Assembly: GCA_000004985.1 (NCBI GenBank)
Contig: GG738849.1
DNA length: 64,000 nt
DNA from: Naegleria gruberi
Lineage: Eukaryota
Direction: 5' to 3' (one strand)
Shown piece by piece: positions 42,729-64,000 of the stretch. The notes under the pieces were generated by a model that had not been told where the DNA came from, searched no databases, and saw only the letters and a program-made list of their open reading frames with translations. Numbering within the stretch: the stretch's first letter is position 1; every line of letters starts with the position of its first letter. A program made the position numbers and the translations under genes.

Positions 42729-43712
42729 TTACATCTTTTTTCTAGCAAGAATACCTTGTTTTATCCTCTTGATATGATTTTTCTCTTCGATATTATATTG
42801 TGACAAAGTGGCATCGTCCAATTGTAAAATTTGTAATCTTTGATCCTCACTCATATTATCTATAATATTAATGATATCATTATCAATGTATGCATTTTGA
42901 TTTTGTGGTTGTCTTTGAGCCATCCTAGGATCTCTTGGATCACTTCTAGGATCAACTCTTGAATCTCTAGGATCACTTCTAGGATCACCTCTTGGATCAC
43001 TAAATGGTTGATTATGTTGTGGTGGTGGAGGTTGATTCATAGGTTGTCTCATCATATTTTGTGGTGGTGGTTGATTGAAAGGTTGATCTACCATTCCTAG
43101 GATGTATTGGATGTGTAATAATACTACAGAAAGGGTTGGGTTTTGTGCCAAAATATTCTTTGCTAATTCCGGATTTGTTTGAACCAAATCTCTCATTTCC
43201 ACAAGACAATCATATAATTGTTGTTTTGAAATTTGGTTTAAAGCTTCCATTACTGGATCTTGATTAGAATCTGTCATTTGATCATAATTTTGCATTCCAA
43301 CATTTTGATTCATCATTGGATTATTAGAATAAGAATTTAATCTAGGATCACTTCTTGATGATGATGATGATGGCATTGGTGGAGGAGGTTGATTCATAGG
43401 CATTGAATTTCCCATCGATTCTCCTTCCCCAGGCATATTAATTTTGTTATTATCAGCAAAATCAACACGAAGTTTTCTTCCGTTAAAATCCCTTCCATCC
43501 AATGTTTTCATAGCATTACTAGCACTACCTTCATCAATAAATTCACAAAAAGCATATCCCTTAGGTTTGTTAGTTTCCCTATCGAAAACCATACGAAAAT
43601 TAACAACTTGTCCAGCCTCGTTAAATATTTGTTTTAATTTATCGGTAGAGGCATCATAGGCAATATTACCAATGAATACACAACGTGATGGTGTTCGGTT
43701 GGTTTTGCTCAT
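42729..43712 (-). CDS. CSTF2: Cleavage stimulation factor subunit 2 (CstF-64): N-terminal RRM, hinge domain, degenerate repeat region, conserved C-terminal domain.
   Basis: RRM RCVFIGNIAYDASTDKLKQIF...KGYAFCEF. Hinge ...ALNQISKQQLYDCLVEMRDLVQTNPELAKNILAQNPTLSVVLLHIQYILGMV. DPRSDPR-type repeats. C-terminus ...EDQRLQILQLDDATLSQ... Confidence 0.75.
   Translation of the reverse strand: MSKTNRTPSRCVFIGNIAYDASTDKLKQIFNEAGQVVNFRMVFDRETNKPKGYAFCEFIDEGSASNAMKTLDGRDFNGRKLRVDFADNNKINMPGEGESMGNSMPMNQPPPPMPSSSSSRSDPRLNSYSNNPMMNQNVGMQNYDQMTDSNQDPVMEALNQISKQQLYDCLVEMRDLVQTNPELAKNILAQNPTLSVVLLHIQYILGMVDQPFNQPPPQNMMRQPMNQPPPPQHNQPFSDPRGDPRSDPRDSRVDPRSDPRDPRMAQRQPQNQNAYIDNDIINIIDNMSEDQRLQILQLDDATLSQYNIEEKNHIKRIKQGILARKKM
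42886..43010 (-). repeat. Coding pentapeptide-like repeats (DPRSDPRDSRVDPRSDPRDPR) inside CstF-64.
   Basis: Tandem gatcc(a/t)agaagtgatcc units read directly on the minus strand. Confidence 0.6.
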
Positions 43713-43944
43713 TTTTTTTATGATTTTGGATTTAATTTTTTTGCTTTTTTATTGAATGAGAAGTGAGTGGAGTAAGAATTATTGAAATTCAGGACAAAGT
43801 TGAAGGTAAACCATTGAAAAATTATCAATAAATCACTGATAGAAAGTCTATTTAAATAAGAAATGAGGTGGAAATTGAAAATGATGATTAATTCCACGCA
43901 GAATCATGTGAGCTCTTCAAGTTATCAATGATAATGTCATATAA

Positions 43945-45339
43945 TTACTTGCTGAAATAGTTGAGTAGGGCTTTCTTTGCCTTCCTAAATAATTGAATTG
44001 ACCAATCTTTGATAAATGTAAAATTCATTCCCAATATTTGAAACTTCCCTAATGCGTGCAATAAACAAAACATTTGAGTGAGTTCAATTGGTGCCAAGTA
44101 GTACTTCCTTTCAATATCGACATTAAGTGTGTAATTCTTCAAATACAACAAAACATTTAAAAGGAAATAAAGTGCATACAATAACAACTCAACATCTCCC
44201 AGTACTATCATTACAATACCAATTGGCAAATACATTACATAGGCAACAATCAAATAATAGGCAACAAATGGAAAAAATTTAAAAAAGCCCGTAAGTGAAA
44301 ATCCAATTCTTTCTTCCAACACAGATATGGAATTGAAAAAATAGGTAAATCCAAAAACCTTAGTATTACAATAGAGCAAAACCAACAATGACAAAATAAC
44401 TGCCACACATTCCATTACAACTTTCAAAATAGCTGGTGAAATGAGTACGTTCATTGGACTTTCATAGCTAATTGAGAGTTGTGATGTTAGTTTTGAAATA
44501 TGAACTGTAGTGGGATATTGTCGAAAGAGTCGTTGTTGGTTAAATCTGTTAAATCTATTTCCAAACAAGTGGCAAACATTTTCCATTCTCAATTTAATGT
44601 TCCTTCTTGGAAGTTCCAAACATTGTTTTGCAATCAAATTGGTAACAAAATTTTGTTCCTGATATTTCCTATGATGCAGAGTTGATACAATAAATTTGTA
44701 TAAAATCTCTGGATTTGAGAGCTGAGCGTAAATAGAATTTGCTTGTGTGTTCCAGCAAGAGTTACTAAAATTGAGTTTTTGAGGTGGTTTTTCATCTTCC
44801 TTTTTAAATTCTGATATATGGAAATTCTTATTTCGTCTGTATCCTTTGAATATTAGAATATCCTCCTTCTTAATTTCATTGATTATTTGAGGTATTTGGC
44901 TATTGATATGAGTAATCAATTTTGTATAGCATTTAAATTCAGGATCTGAAACTTCCTTGAGATTATTTCCATCAATTCGAATAATAAAATCCCAATCATG
45001 ACTATTCTTATTGAGAAGTAAATAATTAAACTTCAGATACAGAGCCAAACATTCCTTCAACTCTTTTCTATTGCAAATTTCCTTTCGTTTCATCTTTTCG
45101 ACCAATTCCTCCTCTCTGATGGTATAAATTACATTCTTTACAACATTTTCCAAGTGATCCACAATTTTCTCTTGAATTGTATTGATGGTCCAATGGAAAT
45201 ATGGATGATCATTATCTAGAATTCGGAAGGGGAAAAATTCATTAAACATTCTGTTGTTGGTTTGAGAGAGGCTGAACATATCGCATGGAGTCGAATATTT
45301 GCAAATCTCAAGTAATTCATCAGAGGAGAGGGAAATCAT
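43945..45339 (-). CDS. F-box-like N-terminal region plus a C-terminal polytopic membrane domain (about 5-6 TM helices); family unknown.
   Basis: N-terminus SSDELLEICKYSTPCDMFSLSQTNNRMF (F-box-like LP/W-less variant), then a soluble region, then multiple hydrophobic helices (ECVAVILSLLVLLYC..., LIVAYVMYLPIGIVMIVLG..., LLYALYFLLNVLLYL...). Confidence 0.45.
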   Translation of the reverse strand: MISLSSDELLEICKYSTPCDMFSLSQTNNRMFNEFFPFRILDNDHPYFHWTINTIQEKIVDHLENVVKNVIYTIREEELVEKMKRKEICNRKELKECLALYLKFNYLLLNKNSHDWDFIIRIDGNNLKEVSDPEFKCYTKLITHINSQIPQIINEIKKEDILIFKGYRRNKNFHISEFKKEDEKPPQKLNFSNSCWNTQANSIYAQLSNPEILYKFIVSTLHHRKYQEQNFVTNLIAKQCLELPRRNIKLRMENVCHLFGNRFNRFNQQRLFRQYPTTVHISKLTSQLSISYESPMNVLISPAILKVVMECVAVILSLLVLLYCNTKVFGFTYFFNSISVLEERIGFSLTGFFKFFPFVAYYLIVAYVMYLPIGIVMIVLGDVELLLYALYFLLNVLLYLKNYTLNVDIERKYYLAPIELTQMFCLLHALGKFQILGMNFTFIKDWSIQLFRKAKKALLNYFSK

Positions 45340-45399
45340 TTTTTTGAGTTATAATGTTCGTTTTTGAAATTGAAAATTACAAAGAAATCAATGGAATAT

Positions 45400-46925
45400 T
45401 TAATTAACATATTTAGATCTTAAAGAGTCAATCTTTTGTGTTTCAATTCCATTGAATTGATAAAAGAGTTCAAAGATTGCCTTGACAAGTTGCATTTCTA
45501 AACTCTCCAAGAACATGACAGTCATGTCGAATCTATTCACATCTGCAATCTTTTGCATTAATTCAAAAGCATTCTCCACGTCTTCCTTATTGAATGGTTT
45601 GGCTAAAAAGTATTTATGTATGGATGAAAGAATGGTGACTAAAACTTCTGGTGACAAAGAATCATGCAAAACTGAATGTAATCGGGTTGGTGGTATGATC
45701 TATATTGTTAATAAATTTAGTGATTATTAAGCCATTTCCAATTTAAAAAAACTTACTCTGAGATAATTAGCAAAGTCTTCACCTCTTAATTCCTTATATT
45801 GCTTTTCAAATTCATAGAATGATTTTGGAGCTGATTGAGGGAATGTTGGTTTGATTGTTACCTTGACAGTCTCAACAACTGGTTCCTTATTTGTGACTGG
45901 TTCAACAACAATTGGTTTTTGTTCTGGTTTCTTGACAGGTTCACTTCTTGGTAATTCTTCCTTCTTTGGTTCAGGAGTTGGTTCAACTTTAGGTTGGGTC
46001 TTAGCTGGTTGTTCTTTCTTTGGTTCAGGAGTTGGTTGTTTGGTCATTTCCTTAATGTTCTTAGATGCTCCTGTTGTAATTAAATCCTCAATTTCCTCTT
46101 CCACAACAGGTTTTTTAACGTCAGCAATTATTGTTGTTTTGGTGACTGCTGGCGATTGTTCTTTTGGTTTTTCTACTACTGGTGGTTGAGTTGTTTGTTT
46201 TGGAGTTGGCTTTGTTTCTTCCTCTTCATCGTCATCCTCTTGAATGACAACCTTTTTTGCCTTTCCTTCCTCACTCTTCTTTAATAATTCGATAGCTTTC
46301 AATAATTCTCTTTCAGTTTCCACATGATTAGGATTTAATTTTCTAGCATATTCAAAATCTTCCTTAGATTCCTTATATTTCTTCAATTCTCTTCTTGCCA
46401 TACCTCTTCTCATGTAACTCTTGACATAACTACTATTCAATGAGAGTGATCGAGTGGCATCCAATTCCGATTCAATAAAATTAGATAATTTGAAATGTGC
46501 TTGACTTCTATTACTGTACACAACTGCATCTTGCTTGAATTGTAAGCTCTTTGTATAAAATTCAATAGCCTTATTTAAATCTCCTTTCTTAAAATATTCA
46601 TTACCAGTTTCTTTGGCTTTTTCTGCTTGTTCATCGGGATCCAGTTGTGTTGGTTGAGCCTTTGCACTGGTTGGCTGTGTTGTTGCCGATGTAGTTGTTG
46701 GGTCACTTCCTCTAACAGGTGGATAACTCTAAAATATTGTTAGATTATTCAAAAGGTATTAATTTTAATTACCTTCTTCTTTTCTCCTTCTTGCAACTTT
46801 TTATCCTTTTCAGAAATTTCCTTTGTCCACTTTTGCAAATCATTTACAAACTCATTGTATTCTTGTGCATTATTTCTGATCTGGTGTTGCATTCTAATCA
46901 GATTTGATTGATAGTCCTTGCTCAT
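45400..46925 (-). CDS. TPR-repeat protein with RPAP3-like C-terminal domain (R2TP/Tah1-like co-chaperone candidate). Exons 46773..46925, 45757..46728 and 45400..45699.
   Basis: TPR repeats (...AIEFYTKSLQFKQDAVVYSNRSQAHFKLSNFIESELDATRSLSLNSSYVKSYMRRGMARRELKKYKESKEDFEYARKLNPNH). A long Pro/Lys/Glu linker. C-terminal helical domain ...LSPEVLVTILSSIHKYFL... Three exons joined by gtaatt/gtaagt donors in phase 0. Confidence 0.5.
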
Positions 46926-50835: not shown

Positions 50836-51936
50836 TTAAAACCAACAAGAACAAAGGGTCTTGCCAAGTACAACACAACAAAGCACAAATATCACGGAAT
50901 TATCGAGAGCTAAATTCTTATTGTTACTCGTATTATTATTACTCAGATTAAGAAATGTCAAGTGGCTCATTAAATTGCTCTCATTAATATAGTTTACACC
51001 ATCATCATCCAGCTGATTAGATGACAGATCCAGTGTGTGCAAATTACTCAAATATTGACTATCTGAAAGGTATTTTGCTCCTGCATTTCCAATAAAGTTT
51101 GTTGTCAAGAATAATTTTCCAAGTTTCGACATGAACTGACTCTCTGCAATATATTTGATTCCCTCATCTCCAATTTCATTCGATTTTAAGGTTAATTCTT
51201 CCAAATTAGACATGTACTGACTCTCTGCAATATACTTCAATCCCAAATTACGAATAGTATTATCTGACAAACTTAACACTCTCAAATTTGACATGGATTG
51301 AGATGAGGTAATATATTCAAGTCCTTCATTTCCAATCTTATTTCTATCCAAATCGAGTATCTGCAAATTGGTCAAGTAAGGACTCTCCACAATACATTTC
51401 ACACCTTCAGCTCCATAAAACGTTGCACTCAAAATCAACTTTCTCAAATTGGACATGAATGGACTTTGTGTTAAATATTTCACACCATCGAGCCGAAACT
51501 CGTTAAAATACAGATCCAGAGTTTGCAAATTTTTCAAATATTCACTTTCTGCCAAGTATTTAACACCCTCATCTCCAATCTTGTTACTTCCCAAGTACAA
51601 TGCTTTCAAGTTGACCATGAATTCACTTTCAGCAATACATTTCACACCTCTATCCTTTATTTCAGCTCCATTCAAATCCAAACTACTCAAATTTAAAGCC
51701 AATTTTTGATCAGTAGAAACCACCCTCACCAAATCACTATAATTAATCCGAAAATATTTAACATGAAGTGGAACAGATTTAGTCAACTGATGCCACTTCT
51801 TACAAGTTAACGAGCAAGATCCAATACAATATTTCGCCTCCAGAAATTGAAAGATCAGACAGAGAACATCATCTGACAGCACGGAGACACTCTCTATCAA
51901 AGTAATCATCAAAGAGGAAGGCACAGCTTGACTCAT
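50836..51936 (-). CDS. F-box / leucine-rich-repeat (RNI-like LRR) protein.
   Basis: N-terminus LSDDVLCLIFQFL...CKKWHQL (F-box), followed by about 10 tandem 24-28 aa LRRs (L..L.L..N.IGDEG.KYI..S). Start taken at the internal MSQAVP Met. Confidence 0.6.
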   Translation of the reverse strand: MSQAVPSSLMITLIESVSVLSDDVLCLIFQFLEAKYCIGSCSLTCKKWHQLTKSVPLHVKYFRINYSDLVRVVSTDQKLALNLSSLDLNGAEIKDRGVKCIAESEFMVNLKALYLGSNKIGDEGVKYLAESEYLKNLQTLDLYFNEFRLDGVKYLTQSPFMSNLRKLILSATFYGAEGVKCIVESPYLTNLQILDLDRNKIGNEGLEYITSSQSMSNLRVLSLSDNTIRNLGLKYIAESQYMSNLEELTLKSNEIGDEGIKYIAESQFMSKLGKLFLTTNFIGNAGAKYLSDSQYLSNLHTLDLSSNQLDDDGVNYINESNLMSHLTFLNLSNNNTSNNKNLALDNSVIFVLCCVVLGKTLCSCWF

Positions 51937-52201
51937 ATTTTTTTTCGTTTGATTTTTTTGCATCATGCGCTTGAAATTTACTTTTCAGGCAATTAAAATT
52001 TTCATGTTCATCAACAGTTCTCTATGAAACTCTTCATTATTATAATATTTTTTCAACGAATTCTTATCTCTCACTATTATTTGCTCAAAAATAATCTAAT
52101 TAAATACTTTACAATAATATTCAATTATTTTACAATAATATTTATTAATTTACAATTTCAATAATAATAATAATAATAAAAATACACAACCATCATCACT
52201 A

Positions 52202-57610: not shown

Positions 57611-59694
57611 TCAAGAAATCCAAAGTTTGTACATGGCAGAAACAATATAGAATCCAATACATAAAATTGTTGGGGTTGGAATCAATGGCAAAGTGAATAG
57701 TCTATAATTTACACCCATCATTACTTCCAGACCTAACGAACAAATGAAGAGAAAGACTACATTAATCATCAAGGCAATACCAAGCTTTTTCATTTTAGGT
57801 CTTTTAGCAGGAGGAGTAAACATGGTACAGAATCGTTTCAGAATAAATCCAAACATTAAACATGTTGCAACGTGCATGATGGCAATTAAAACATGCATAC
57901 CAATAACAATATATGAAATTGTAGCTGCCAATCCATCCTCATCATCAGGTGAAGCATCTGCTTTTTGGCTGTAGTGAAGTAAAACAAAAGCTCCTCCAAT
58001 CAGTAAACAGAAAAATAAGTGAAGAGCCGTATTGATAATATTTCTAATAATTAATTGTCTTCTATTTCCTCCCAATGCTGCAGTTAATGTTATTGTTTGA
58101 GAAATCCAAGAGACAACCTATTGAAAAAATTAAGCTTGAATATTAAATAATATCAACTTACTGTAATTAGAATGAAAGCAATTAGGAAAGGTGACATTAT
58201 AAAGGAATAGTTATTTACAATTCTCTTAAAAGCATAGAATTTGATATTCTCAATGCCAGGAGTATCATCCATCAAATATTTGGCAGATAATGGGAATATA
58301 CAGGAAAGATTAACCATAAAGAAGAATCCAGTCAAGCCAAATATGAAAATTAATCCAATAAGGATGACCAATACTCCTTGAACAGTTTGTCTTGATTTGA
58401 GTTTAAATCTCAAATAGGCCTTTGTAAATTGTTGAAATAATACAATAATACCACAAAACAGTGGTGGATATAAAAATGCAAAAGGTAATATCCAGTATCC
58501 ATCGATTGCGTTAGGATCGTCCATTGATACGGAAAACATGTCGAAATTCATTTTGATTAGTTGTAATATGAGACAGAGAGTGGCAGAGGCTGTGGAAATT
58601 GGCACTCCCAAAAAGAATGTGAAATAATATTGAGTATTGTGACACATTTCATACATGTTTTCCAATTTTTCTCTTCCCTTGTTATGAGTTTCTAATTGTT
58701 TGGTTGCTGTTGAAACAAAATTGTTCAATTTTTGGAAGCAAAGCTTGTAGAATGAGCAAATATATGGTGCATGTAAAAGAGTGTAAAACTCTCTTTCATA
58801 TCTATTAATTTCACTTGTACCAATACTACTAACTGCCTTATCTCCCAAAATATTCCTCAAATTATAGTGATTTTGTTTGAATTTATCCTCCAACTCTTCC
58901 TCAATTTCTCCCTCGATTCTAATTTTAATTTCCTTTCTCTTTTCATCCTCAACCTCACCCTCAAATCTTGTACTATCATTATTATTAGGATTTGGATCAA
59001 AGAGTGGAATGTAAAATCTACTCTGAAGGGATTCTAATAAATTCTCCTTTTTATCAATCTCTGGTAAGTATTTCGAACCTTGGAATGAGGAAAAGATGAA
59101 TTTGGAATGTTTTGATGGAAACAATTGTTTAAGAAAGAATTTCTCCCACAAAATATTCTGTTGAGAGAGGAATAGCCACTCCTTTGAGACTTGAGAAATG
59201 GACATGATCAGAGATTCATAAGGCAAGAATGAAAATACAATAAGGAGAACATCTCTAGGTATTTGCTCCCATTGAGAAGGTACACTATATTCAGAAGTTC
59301 TATCAGGATTTACATTGAATCCATAAATTGAGTACAAGACATGATGATTGAAAACACCAATAGCTCTCGAAGAAGAAACTTGTGTTGCCTCATCATCATT
59401 TGTTTCCAATAATTCATCCATTTCATCACTTGATAATTGTTCATCAAAGGCATTACCACGAGGAGAAGTCATCATTCTCTTTCCCGATATCAATTCAATC
59501 AAACCGTTAAATACATTTCCCAAACTAAATTCTCCATTGTTATTAGCAATACTACGATTGTTGTTATGATTACTACTGTGGTGACGAGTGTTGCTTCTAT
59601 GTACAATTAGATTTGTCGTTCCGTCATCGTTTAATTGTTCCTCTTCTTCGGCATGGTGGTGCTGATCATCATTGCCCAAAGAACGTAAAGACAT
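57611..59694 (-). CDS. F-box-like N-terminal region plus a polytopic membrane domain (at least 8 TM helices). Exons 58162..59694 and 57611..58117.
   Basis: ...IPRDVLLIVFSFLPYESLIMSISQVSKEWLFLSQQNILW (F-box-like), then multiple hydrophobic helices. gtaagt...caatag intron in phase 0 joins ...FILIT/VVSWISQ... Confidence 0.5.
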
Positions 59695-59865: not shown

Positions 59866-60273
59866 ATGACTGATTCTCTTCCTCCAATTCCTTCCTTGAA
59901 TTTTGTTTATCATCTCGTATCGGAGAGTGCCTATTTGAAAGATGTACAAGAACACAACGGTCAATATTTCAATGGTGATAAGAGGGATGGCTTTCTTCAC
60001 ATGTCCATTGCTTCCGAAGTTGAAAAGAGTTGCAAATTGTATATGCACTCTGTAAAGGATTTGATAATATTAAAGATTGATATCAAGAGTTTGGAAGCTA
60101 GAGTTTCAAGTTCAACTGTTGTTGAGAAGATTGCCTACGATTGGGTTCCTGCAAGAAGTAATTATTTTCCTCATCTCTATGGATTATTACCAGTCGAGTG
60201 TATTGTAGATAGAATTTCCGTGCCAGTCGTTCAAGATGAACACTCTTTTGATGGTATTCACTTGGATAATTAA
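59866..60273 (+). CDS. DUF952-family small protein.
   Basis: ...RDGFLHMSIASEV...LIILKID...YDWVPARSNYFPHLYGLLPVECIV matches the DUF952 consensus DGFIHFST..Q......LL.VD....L.WE.SRGG.LFPHLYG.LPL.AV. Confidence 0.55.
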   Translation: MTDSLPPIPSLNFVYHLVSESAYLKDVQEHNGQYFNGDKRDGFLHMSIASEVEKSCKLYMHSVKDLIILKIDIKSLEARVSSSTVVEKIAYDWVPARSNYFPHLYGLLPVECIVDRISVPVVQDEHSFDGIHLDN

Positions 60274-60578
60274 ACTCTTCTATTGTTCAAAAAGCTTTTG
60301 AAAAATTCTTTCGTCAGGAGTATTTAATTCTACCATCAAAATATTGTCGGCAAAATTTCATATTAATAATATTCCATCTTTAAATCTTCATCTTTTAGTT
60401 AATATTTTCTACATATTCTTATTGTTGTTGTGTGTTTTGTTTTATTGGAGAGTGAATTCTATCATCTTTATTCAACTTAGAAAGGCGCCTTTTATGTGCT
60501 TTGTAACAGTGGTGGTTGACTCTGCCCATATTTGCCTATTTTTGGGGCCATACAATTTTGTTTTAATTAAATAAAAAA

Positions 60579-60941
60579 ATGTTGAACAGATTCGCTAAGA
60601 AGACTGCCCAAAGCGTTATTCAAACTTCTTCTAACACTTCTAGATCCCTCCACACAAATCCAGTCTATGACTACAAGGGTGCTTGGAAGACATACAAGGG
60701 TGCTAAGATGCAAGCTTTCGCTTTAGGTCTTGTTGCTTGTGTTCTTGGTCCTCTCTGGGTCTGGAAGGCTGAACACGACGATATTAGAACCGTCTACGTT
60801 TTCGATGGTAAACCAGTTTTCGCCAAGTTGAGACCAAAGTTGTACGCTTGGAAGAGTGATTGTCTCGATTGTGGTCTCTTCGATAAGGACTGTGCTGCTA
60901 TGTGTAAGCAAATTCAAGATGCCAAGAAGAAGGGTCTCTAA
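60579..60941 (+). CDS. Small (120 aa) protein with a presequence-like N-terminus, one TM helix and a C-terminal Cys cluster; probably a mitochondrial membrane protein; family unknown.
   Basis: MLNRFAKKTAQSVIQTSSNTSRSLHT (basic/hydroxylated, no acidic residues), TM FALGLVACVLGPLWVW, and CLDCGLFDKDCAAMC. Codon usage typical of expressed genes (GGT, CCA, AAG). Confidence 0.5.
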   Translation: MLNRFAKKTAQSVIQTSSNTSRSLHTNPVYDYKGAWKTYKGAKMQAFALGLVACVLGPLWVWKAEHDDIRTVYVFDGKPVFAKLRPKLYAWKSDCLDCGLFDKDCAAMCKQIQDAKKKGL

Positions 60942-61054
60942 ATTAAAATATTATCATCATCATCCGAATGAAATAACATTTTTTAAAATTGTAACTTTAA
61001 ATTAGGGATTTTTAAATTAAAGGCGCCACTATTAGGTTTTTTGAAAAGACAATT

Positions 61055-63664
61055 TTATTGTAAATTTAAAACCATTCTCTTCTTATCTGCCTTCTTTCTT
61101 CTATCGTGATTAGCACTTTTGGCCTTGTTTTCTCCTTTTTGTTTGAAGTTATTGTTGTTTCCGCCACGTTGTTGTTCATTTGGTGAGGAAGTAGTATCAC
61201 TGTTGTTATCTTGACTAGTTGTAGCACTGTTGGTAACAACCTTGTTAGTGGCAGTAGCAGTTGGTTGTTTGCTTACTTGCTTCGAGGCATCATTTGAACC
61301 TTGGTTGGATGTATCTGCAGATTGTTGTTTGGATTGTTGATGAGTGCTCACTTGATGATAGCCTCCACCTCTCTTTCCTCTATTAGCTGTTGATCCTCCT
61401 CTGTTGTTATTGTTGTTTTGATTTCTTTGAGGTTTGGAATTGGATTCGATACCAGCAGCGTTAGCATTATTTGAGGAGGATTGAGAAGTATTTGGAGTTG
61501 AGGCAGATTGATTATTGTTGTTTGATTGTTGTTGGTGATGTTTGTTTCTATTTGGATTACCTTGTTGCTTATTGCCTTGTTGCTGCTTATTCTCTTGTTG
61601 TTGCTGTTGTTGTTGAGGAGGCTTATTCTCTATTGTTTGTGGCTTTTCTTCACCATGGTGGTGTTGATGATTTGGATTACTATTGTAAGCCTTTGGAACC
61701 TTAATCTTGTTAAAGTTTTCGTCTTCATGTTCACCTTCAGTTGTGACAGCCATCACACTATCATATGAATCATCATATTCATCATCGTAGGCATATTCGA
61801 GGAGAATACGTTGCTTGATAGTTTCGTCTGTTTCATTAAAGTTGGTTCTATTGTCCTTCTTTTTACCAATTCTGACCGATGCGAAAAAGTCAGTATCCAT
61901 CCAGACAGTTGGTGAAACAATTGGTGAGGCAGGTTCGTAAGAGGATGATGATGATCCACTTGTTGAGCCAGTATTGAGAAGAGATGAAGGTGGCTTACTT
62001 CCAGTATTTGTTGGAGCCTTATAGGATTTGAGTGACAATTTGTTGTCCATCTTCTTCAAGTGCAATGGCAATTGATTATCCATGAGGGCATTTGTAGTGT
62101 TGGTAATATCATTATTGAAATGATCGAGACATGCTTGTAAGAATCCATTTCCATAATCTGGGAAGAATGATTTGAGTTGTTTGAGCATTTCTGTTAGAGC
62201 TGGTTCATCTTCACTGTTGGTTGATCCCTCTGTTTGAGCATTTTCAGATAATTTAGTGAAAATAGTTGTTGAAATATTATAGACAGAAGAGACACTACTC
62301 AGTAAAGCATTTCCCAAAATAACTTGTTCTAACCACTTTCCTAAACCATATAACTTGTCATATTGATAGATTACATAGTTGAATTTAGTTTGATCCTTAG
62401 CTTGGAATTTGAAAAATCCTTGTAAAATGTCCAATAATTCCAAAACAATTCCTGTTGCTTGTCTTGTAAGTTGCTTGTCAAGAGTAAATTTACACAAGAG
62501 TTCGAGTTTAGATTTTGGAATTTGTTCCTTCTTGAATGATGATTCAAAATATCTAGTGTACAATGTTTCCATATGACTTGTTGTTGATCTATTTGAATGA
62601 GTTTCTCCAGTAATTAAATCTTCAATATTTCTCATATAGTATTCTCTAAACAAAACATGAAGAATAGAAACAATATTAAGTTTGACTTGTCTGCATACAA
62701 ATCTATAATCAGGGTCATCACCAATAATACTCAAAAGTTGGGGTATAATCTTATCGTGACATTCCATCAAAAGATTAGGGAATTGATAATTGACAGGAGT
62801 TTTGGTTTCTCTAGTGTCAACCATGAAAGCATAGGACGCCAGTGGGAAAACATCAAGGAGGGATCTTATGGTAAATGTAGAATCGTATAAATAGTAAATT
62901 AACTTTCTAATTTGATGACAATCAGATTTTGAGTTTGAAGTCACCTTGTTTGAGGCATCAAACAAATCTCTCCACGTAACACAAATACTATTCAAAACAT
63001 GTTCATTGAGTTCGTGCATATAATTTGGTGAAGAGAGGAAAATTCTGGAAAGTAACTCGGTGGTAAGCATTGAATTAGGATATCCATAAAGTGAAGAGAG
63101 ATCAAATATTTTACCAACATCTAGTAAATGCTTTTCACAAATGACAAACCCAGCATCTAACCATTCTTCACGATTTACATTATTCAAGTCTGTTGGATGT
63201 GAAATGTCAATATTTCCCTTTCCATGTAAATTAAAGTTCATAAATAATCTATAGTAAATCATGAAGAGACGTCTATATATTTTGATTTCCTCACGTTGTT
63301 CATTCCTTGGACAATTTTCATTGATTTGATTAAATCCAATATCAAAAGGTCTCGGAAACAATCTAAATACACTTTCTAAGCTTCTCTTGAGAGAGGTATC
63401 ATTCAACATGAGCACCCAAAAATCATGATCATTACAAGTTAACAATTTATGATAATCTCTATTCAAAATTTTTAAACATTCAATTCTAGTTATTCTCTTA
63501 TCAGATGCCAACAATGGATTTAAACGATCCATGAACGGAATCATTTCCAATCCTTGTCCCTTTCCTAAAGAATAATAATTCTCTAGCCTAGTATGTAATT
63601 GAGTAAAGGATTGAACATCAATGGGAGTATTGTTCATTTTGTGTGTGATGATGAATTTTTTCAA
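61055..63664 (-). CDS. ASCC2: Activating signal cointegrator 1 complex subunit 2-like protein (CUE-domain) with a long Gln/Asn/Ser-rich C-terminal tail.
   Basis: CUE region ...LKSFFPDYGNGFLQACLDHFNNDITNTTNALMDNQLP matches the human ASCC2 motif DLLPDLGEGFILACLEYYHYDPEQVINNILE. Large helical N-terminal domain. Probable real start MNNTPIDV (about 63637). Confidence 0.65.
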   Translation of the reverse strand: MKKFIITHKMNNTPIDVQSFTQLHTRLENYYSLGKGQGLEMIPFMDRLNPLLASDKRITRIECLKILNRDYHKLLTCNDHDFWVLMLNDTSLKRSLESVFRLFPRPFDIGFNQINENCPRNEQREEIKIYRRLFMIYYRLFMNFNLHGKGNIDISHPTDLNNVNREEWLDAGFVICEKHLLDVGKIFDLSSLYGYPNSMLTTELLSRIFLSSPNYMHELNEHVLNSICVTWRDLFDASNKVTSNSKSDCHQIRKLIYYLYDSTFTIRSLLDVFPLASYAFMVDTRETKTPVNYQFPNLLMECHDKIIPQLLSIIGDDPDYRFVCRQVKLNIVSILHVLFREYYMRNIEDLITGETHSNRSTTSHMETLYTRYFESSFKKEQIPKSKLELLCKFTLDKQLTRQATGIVLELLDILQGFFKFQAKDQTKFNYVIYQYDKLYGLGKWLEQVILGNALLSSVSSVYNISTTIFTKLSENAQTEGSTNSEDEPALTEMLKQLKSFFPDYGNGFLQACLDHFNNDITNTTNALMDNQLPLHLKKMDNKLSLKSYKAPTNTGSKPPSSLLNTGSTSGSSSSSYEPASPIVSPTVWMDTDFFASVRIGKKKDNRTNFNETDETIKQRILLEYAYDDEYDDSYDSVMAVTTEGEHEDENFNKIKVPKAYNSNPNHQHHHGEEKPQTIENKPPQQQQQQQENKQQQGNKQQGNPNRNKHHQQQSNNNNQSASTPNTSQSSSNNANAAGIESNSKPQRNQNNNNNRGGSTANRGKRGGGYHQVSTHQQSKQQSADTSNQGSNDASKQVSKQPTATATNKVVTNSATTSQDNNSDTTSSPNEQQRGGNNNNFKQKGENKAKSANHDRRKKADKKRMVLNLQ

Positions 63665-64000
63665 ATTTTTTGTTTTATTTTTAAAAATATTAAATAATCA
63701 AATTGCTGATGGTGATGAGCAAAAACTTCAAGGCAACAATTTCGGGAATGAACTCAAGTACGATATTGAACAGAATAATTGTTTCCTTGATGGTGTGAAG
63801 AAAAAGATAATGTTTAATTTGAGACTAATTTTGAAATGTTTAGCAACCTACAATATAATCCTAAATTCTATTTAATAATCTGTAGTGAGAGAACAATTGT
63901 AAAGATTGAGTTTCCATGGAAACAAATTTCAAGAACAATCATCAGCTGATGAATGAGATTGGAATTTCTCCTCATATACGGAAACAAAAAGGAAAACTTT

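Follow-up and report, generated by a model that had tools for sequence, protein, structure and literature searches.

A degenerate F-box-like motif on a predicted multi-pass membrane protein of Naegleria gruberi, and an unrelated neighbour with a canonical F-box

We suggest that a Naegleria gruberi gene at 43945..45339 encodes a membrane-tethered, Skp1-docking substrate receptor that is translated from position 45339. As a reading of the whole protein this is tentative, its chances lying a little short of even, and it draws on the precedent of the Arabidopsis protein CFB with its proven Skp1 binding, taken together with conservation of the N-terminal motif and hydropathy. Positions are those of the window, that is, the whole stretch of 64,000 nucleotides from contig GG738849.1 that was analysed. 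The gene is called copy 1 here, and the gene at 57611..59694, which an earlier note had paired with it, is called the neighbour or copy 2; both genes, with every feature of theirs given below, lie on the minus strand.

Results

Copy 1 is a single unbroken ORF of 464 amino acids plus stop. Its residues 31-464 are 100% identical to a public N. gruberi protein (P0001, N-terminus MFNEFF), and the gene is NAEGRDRAFT_62930 (XP_002681764.1, D2V2A1), annotated as a 434-aa "predicted protein"; no mention of the accession numbers was found in the literature searched. This identity places the organism among the Heterolobosea, which corrects the earlier note, where the source had been taken for an amoebozoan. 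ORFs on the plus strand within the copy 1 interval all measure 61 aa or less, no ncRNA or tRNA was found at 43000..46600, and no repeats were found inside the gene.

The two versions of the protein differ at the start codon. The first in-frame ATG lies at 45339, three codons past an in-frame stop, while the public model begins at Met31 (45247..45249), a residue that aligns with the Trp in helix 3 of the F-box, and therefore loses most of the N-terminal motif. The 30 codons that this model leaves out (45247..45339) are the best-conserved part of the family, and on this conservation the first 30 codons are shown to be coding. Since the relatives align from query residue 2-3 onwards, copy 1 is likely to begin with the ATG at 45339, and the start codon of NAEGRDRAFT_62930 is probably mis-annotated, with a model that is 30 codons short.

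Among 1.84 billion representative proteins, searched exhaustively with phmmer, copy 1 was matched to four only, namely the annotated protein itself and three relatives. These are an N. gruberi paralog (P0006, NAEGRDRAFT_75777, 501 aa, 34% identity, E 3e-47), an environmental fragment of 178 aa from an SRA run (P0007) and an environmental protein of 438 aa from a 3.7-kb contig with 33% GC (P0008). Neither a profile search of a 5.8-billion-protein collection nor a scan of metagenome contigs added any relative to these three. N. lovaniensis and Willaertia, though both are present in the databases, yielded no ortholog, and none was seen near the orthologs of the neighbour in N. lovaniensis and a related assembly, where the loci are only 10 kb long and stop short of the equivalent position. 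The known family thus consists of two N. gruberi paralogs and two environmental sequences and, as far as sequence searches reach, is small, fast-evolving and confined to N. gruberi-like genomes.

That the ORF is non-functional, a pseudogene or annotation artefact whose features would be meaningless, is very improbable. The whole protein matches nothing in Pfam even at E<=10, and this, like the failure to find N. lovaniensis or Willaertia orthologs, is what such an explanation would lead one to expect; it is, however, at odds with 464 open codons kept intact in AT-rich DNA (32% GC in the copy 1 region) and with homologs at E-values from 3e-47 to 2e-13 that share an invariant motif and conserved hydrophobic segments. 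An identical annotated protein and a paralog at 34% identity confirm the proposed ORF as a real gene.

About 60 bp (45340..45400) separate the ATG of copy 1 from the stop of a same-strand ORF at 45400..45669, so that any promoter of copy 1 would be very short or would overlap the 3' end of the upstream gene. This ORF could belong, as last exon, to the TPR gene at 45727..46521, which carries a 27-bp tandem repeat of 3.1 copies (45958..46040) in its Pro/Glu/Lys-rich part. Directly downstream of copy 1 lies a CstF-64-like gene (42729..43712, minus strand) with an RRM and a CSTF2 hinge, whose product includes a long stretch that is rich in Pro and Gln and contains DPR(S/G)DPR repeats.

The N-terminal motif of copy 1 (residues 4-42, LSSDELLEICKYSTPCDMFSLSQTNNRMFNEFFPFRILD; 45214..45330) reads LSSDxxxEICxxxxPCDxFxxSQ across the family, and 13 of the first 26 residues (L4, S5, S6, D7, E11, I12, C13, P18, C19, D20, F22, S25 and Q26) are invariant in all four members. 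It is likely that this N-terminus is homologous to the F-box. Alternatively, copy 1 could be a lineage-specific membrane protein in which the likeness is a relic or arose by chance, the motif being kept for another reason, such as a helical interaction or targeting, and having no part in Skp1 binding or ubiquitination. We regard this second explanation as a substantial possibility, although one that falls clearly below an even chance.

The profile scores bear on both explanations. Searched alone, the first 70 residues of copy 1 match PF00646 at residues 3-31 (profile positions 3-31 of 43) with 15.5 bits (E 0.017), under the Pfam cut-off of 20.5 bits (for PF12937 it is 24.3 bits). Eight shuffled and two reversed N-terminal fragments, run against Pfam as controls, gave chance matches of up to 17 bits (E 0.005), so the score of copy 1 is not evidence by itself, and its place inside the control range would suit a chance likeness. 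Yet these control matches were to assorted families and never to the F-box (0 of 10), whereas in copy 1 and in each of its three relatives no Pfam family ranks above the F-box at this N-terminal place, with PF00646 scores (whole protein and N-terminal fragment, respectively) of 16.4 and 21.3 bits for P0006, 16.4 and 21.8 bits for P0007, and 20.7 and 25.4 bits (E 1.3e-5) for P0008. The support for an F-box in copy 1 itself is transitive, coming only through these homologs. The F-box-like N-terminus proposed earlier is thus only partly borne out, by the PF00646 matches of 20.7-25.4 bits in the homologs and not by the score of copy 1 taken alone.

A register test, in which the LS of the four N-termini was set against the LP of six genuine F-boxes and each pairing was compared with its own shuffles, also speaks against chance: all four N-termini beat 97-100% of shuffles, with p<=0.007 in nearly all pairs. 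The six reference F-boxes came from Skp2, from the neighbour's family (four sequences: N. gruberi, P0002, P0004 and P0005) and from the F-box/LRR gene at 50836.

Other observations are better accommodated by a relic or a chance likeness. The match in the copy 1 family covers profile positions 1-31 of 43, corresponding to helices 1 and 2, and helix 3 goes undetected, so that one of the three F-box helices is without a match. The residues that the earlier note had named for Skp1 binding, the Leu-Pro and the Trp, are absent from copy 1 on alignment, with LS and M in their places, and both are missing from all four members: Leu-Pro is Leu-Ser throughout, and the helix-3 Trp position (..K.W..) is occupied by M, L, M and F. 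Leu-Ser alone does not bar a sequence from the F-box family, since a genuine 36-bit F-box of the same genome, in the gene at 50836..51966, has it too. PDB searches with the family profile, with an N-terminal profile and with the N-terminus of P0008 alone returned no F-box protein.

A home-made HMM of the copy 1 motif missed the genuine F-boxes in the window and one made from the six genuine F-boxes missed the copy 1 family, both HMMs being too shallow to decide membership. The AF2 model of copy 1, built from a four-sequence alignment, is too poor for use (pLDDT 35); it places helices at 6-14, 18-27 and 29-34, but with local pLDDT of 36-42, and Foldseek found nothing in the PDB for it at E<=0.001.

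Behind the motif, residues 43-303 (44431..45213) are predicted to be cytosolic and match no Pfam domain. Residues 46-110 are the best conserved after the motif and helical in AF2 at low confidence, and the conserved positions of the middle region are H62, E77, R91, L98, Y101, L102, F118, I120 and F173. The C-terminal part was assessed by the Kyte-Doolittle mean over 19 residues (KD19), two or more segments of at least 1.6 being taken as polytopic, and by summed Hessa scale. Two predicted transmembrane (TM) helices, at residues 304-322 (ILKVVMECVAVILSLLVLL; 44374..44430; KD19 2.67, Hessa 0.06) and 362-380 (44200..44256; KD19 2.46, Hessa -0.37), are backed by both scales; a probable third at 382-400 (44140..44196) has a KD19 of 1.73, and a possible fourth, TM or amphipathic, at 425-443 (44011..44067) is weak at 1.22. 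With values of 2.67, 2.46 and 1.73, it is reasonable on hydropathy to call copy 1 polytopic, with two to four helices, in line with the multiple TM helices originally read from this sequence (two strong and one or two weaker).

Residues 362-380 line up with the segment that is most hydrophobic in P0006 and in P0008, although the hydrophobic region as a whole is only moderately conserved in the family and P0008 has one strong segment. All the same, copy 1 very probably inserts in a membrane. There is no hydrophobic signal-like segment at the N-terminus, and the C-terminal tail after helix 4 is Lys-rich (6 K/R against 1 D/E); this fits a protein with both termini inside and helices even in number, whose F-box-like end would face the cytosol.

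A degenerate F-box on a membrane-associated protein would also fit a non-canonical Skp1 partner. Skp1 recruitment without a cullin has been described for yeast Rcy1 and for the RAVE complex, and copy 1 might likewise bind Skp1 in a membrane-trafficking or assembly role and form no SCF ligase. The PF00646 scores of the homologs and the register test agree with this as well as they do with an SCF role, and nothing in the sequence tells the two apart. Copy 1 nevertheless has no similarity to Rcy1-type proteins, the phmmer matches being limited to its own four-member family, and we consider a cullin-free role distinctly unlikely.

The neighbour makes a stronger case than copy 1 for an F-box combined with TM helices, and here the original reading of a second gene with this layout is borne out. 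It is identical to the annotated protein XP_002681768.1 (679 aa), which already bears the name "F-box domain-containing protein", and is spliced from exon 1 (59694..58162) and exon 2 (58117..57611) across a 44-nt intron (GTAAGT..ATAG, 58161..58118). Its F-box at residues 142-188 (59131..59271) scores 32.4 bits with PF12937 and 27.6 bits with PF00646, the family profile matches the F-box of Skp2 (1fs1_A) at E 4.5e-5, and the family keeps LP and both Trp (P146, W173 and W183 are invariant). Eight TM helices are predicted at residues 359-670 (57641..58620, a span that includes the intron; KD19 1.74-2.83), in a region conserved in Naegleria and Willaertia, and in an N-in topology 16 K/R fall inside against 7 outside. 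The layout recurs in orthologs from N. lovaniensis (63% identity), Willaertia magna (40%) and two other assemblies, and the F-box was matched in all five orthologs. The helix bundle has no match in Pfam or among solved structures; the AF2 model (five-sequence alignment, pLDDT 41), which was given no weight as evidence, found nothing in the PDB with Foldseek at E<=0.001.

In the gene models of the neighbour's orthologs P0003 and P0004, similarity ends precisely where the 44-nt intron lies and unrelated sequence follows; at the locus L003 (6383..8519) the next gene is a separate one of 170 aa with a match to exon 2 of the neighbour. It seems from this that the intron position is conserved and that these models read through the intron. 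The 5' side of the neighbour (59866..63697, with a DUF952 gene, a 120-aa gene and a CUE-domain gene) which was compared with L002 3240..6975, is syntenic with N. lovaniensis and the related assembly, N. lovaniensis having two extra genes (460-aa and TLD-domain) between the DUF952 and F-box genes; on the other side N. gruberi has a TP_methylase gene and the others an ALO / FAD_binding_4 oxidase gene.

Copy 1 and the neighbour share a cytosolic F-box or F-box-like end followed by C-terminal helices, and they lie about 12-13 kb apart on the same strand. This layout, an N-terminal F-box(-like) segment ahead of a strongly hydrophobic C-terminal part, had been read correctly for both genes, but the family of two copies built on it does not hold. 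BLASTP between the two proteins gave a best E of 0.34, and hhalign a probability of 0.35% for the whole proteins and of 1.5% for the N-terminal regions; paralogy was rejected on these comparisons, and with it a lineage-specific two-copy family. The HMM of the copy 1 family likewise misses the neighbour, and the neighbour-side HMM misses the copy 1 family. The 1.5% obtained against the neighbour's F-box also counts on the side of a relic or chance likeness in copy 1. The F-box starts at residue 4 in copy 1, where it is degenerate, and at residue 142 in the neighbour, where it is canonical with LP and Trp; there are two to four TM helices in the one and eight in the other; and the neighbour is conserved across genera (40-63% identity), whereas copy 1 is found in N. 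gruberi-like genomes only. In the absence of detectable homology, the shared layout would be independent if both are F-box membrane proteins.

Between the two genes sits a third F-box gene (50836..51966, minus strand), which encodes 376 aa with a 36-bit F-box, reading LSDD in place of LP, and LRR_6 repeats; the exact protein is absent from the public collection. Its last 20 residues, SVIFVLCCVVLGKTLCSCWF, form a hydrophobic tail rich in Cys that might serve as a tail anchor or be lipidated. Hydrophobic segments are therefore present in three F-box(-like) genes within 16 kb, and the tail of the third hints that membrane tethering of F-box proteins may be common in the Naegleria lineage.

Discussion

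Membrane-sited SCF adaptors are established by CFB, FBXW7beta and FBXL4, so that the idea of such an adaptor was already known. In CFB of Arabidopsis thaliana (AT3G44326; two paralogs) the F-box lies at the N-terminus, a TM helix at the C-terminus, and no further domain is known; the protein requires its F-box to bind the Skp1 homolog ASK1 and its TM segment to associate with membranes (PMC5853388). Like CFB, copy 1 combines an F-box(-like) N-terminus, a middle part without known domain and C-terminal TM segments, and for the layout that we propose, CFB offers the best parallel in function. The likeness is one of architecture only: no sequence homology to CFB was seen, the search of 1.84 billion proteins having returned only the close relatives of copy 1. 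The F-box of CFB is canonical and that of copy 1 degenerate, and CFB has one TM helix against two to four in copy 1 and about eight in the neighbour.

Under the receptor reading that we favour, the protein would start at 45339 and open with a degenerate F-box whose helices 1 and 2 can still be recognised, with LP changed to LS and the helix-3 Trp to Met. The roughly 300 N-terminal residues would be cytosolic and two to four C-terminal TM helices would anchor the protein, while the N-terminal motif would dock Skp1 and thereby Cul1-Rbx1. Residues 43-303, the helix bundle or both would then select clients in or on the same membrane for ubiquitination, in an arrangement like the one that was shown experimentally for Arabidopsis CFB.

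FBXW7beta and FBXL4 are, like the proposed copy 1, SCF substrate receptors placed at a membrane. Human FBXW7beta has an isoform-specific TM domain (PMC10111352), and SCF-FBXL4 sits on the mitochondrial outer membrane, where it degrades the membrane proteins NIX and BNIP3 (PMC10308361). Both join a classical soluble substrate-binding domain (WD40 and LRR, respectively) to a single sequence for anchoring or targeting. Such a domain is missing from the Naegleria proteins, and half of the neighbour, unlike FBXW7beta and FBXL4, consists of a conserved polytopic bundle. The only unusual element is this multi-pass bundle, and it is secure only for the neighbour.

Polytopic ER ligases of the RING class (Hrd1 and Doa10/MARCH6 type) couple a bundle of membrane helices to a module in the cytosol that brings in the ubiquitination machinery. 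They would offer a functional parallel, conceptual only, if the Naegleria bundle recognises intramembrane clients; they are RING ligases and not F-box/cullin ligases, and they have no sequence similarity to the Naegleria proteins. A bolder view, which we consider unlikely, is that Naegleria evolved polytopic, membrane-embedded SCF receptors at least twice and independently, that intramembrane clients are recognised by the helix bundle itself in place of a soluble WD40, LRR or Kelch domain, and that such receptors are to cullin-RING ligases what the Hrd1/Doa10 type is to RING ligases. The conserved neighbour with its eight TM helices would then represent the ancient form, while the copy 1 family would be young and fast-evolving.

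Conclusions

For copy 1 alone the outcome is a modest improvement in the annotation of an orphan gene, in which the apparent 30-codon truncation of the NAEGRDRAFT_62930 model hides the only recognisable motif of the protein, and what appeared to be a two-copy family is two unrelated genes. If the motif does bind Skp1, however, SCF ligases would extend from single-anchor adaptors such as CFB, FBXW7beta and FBXL4 to multi-pass receptors, and a deep-branching eukaryote would have a route to clients inside membranes.
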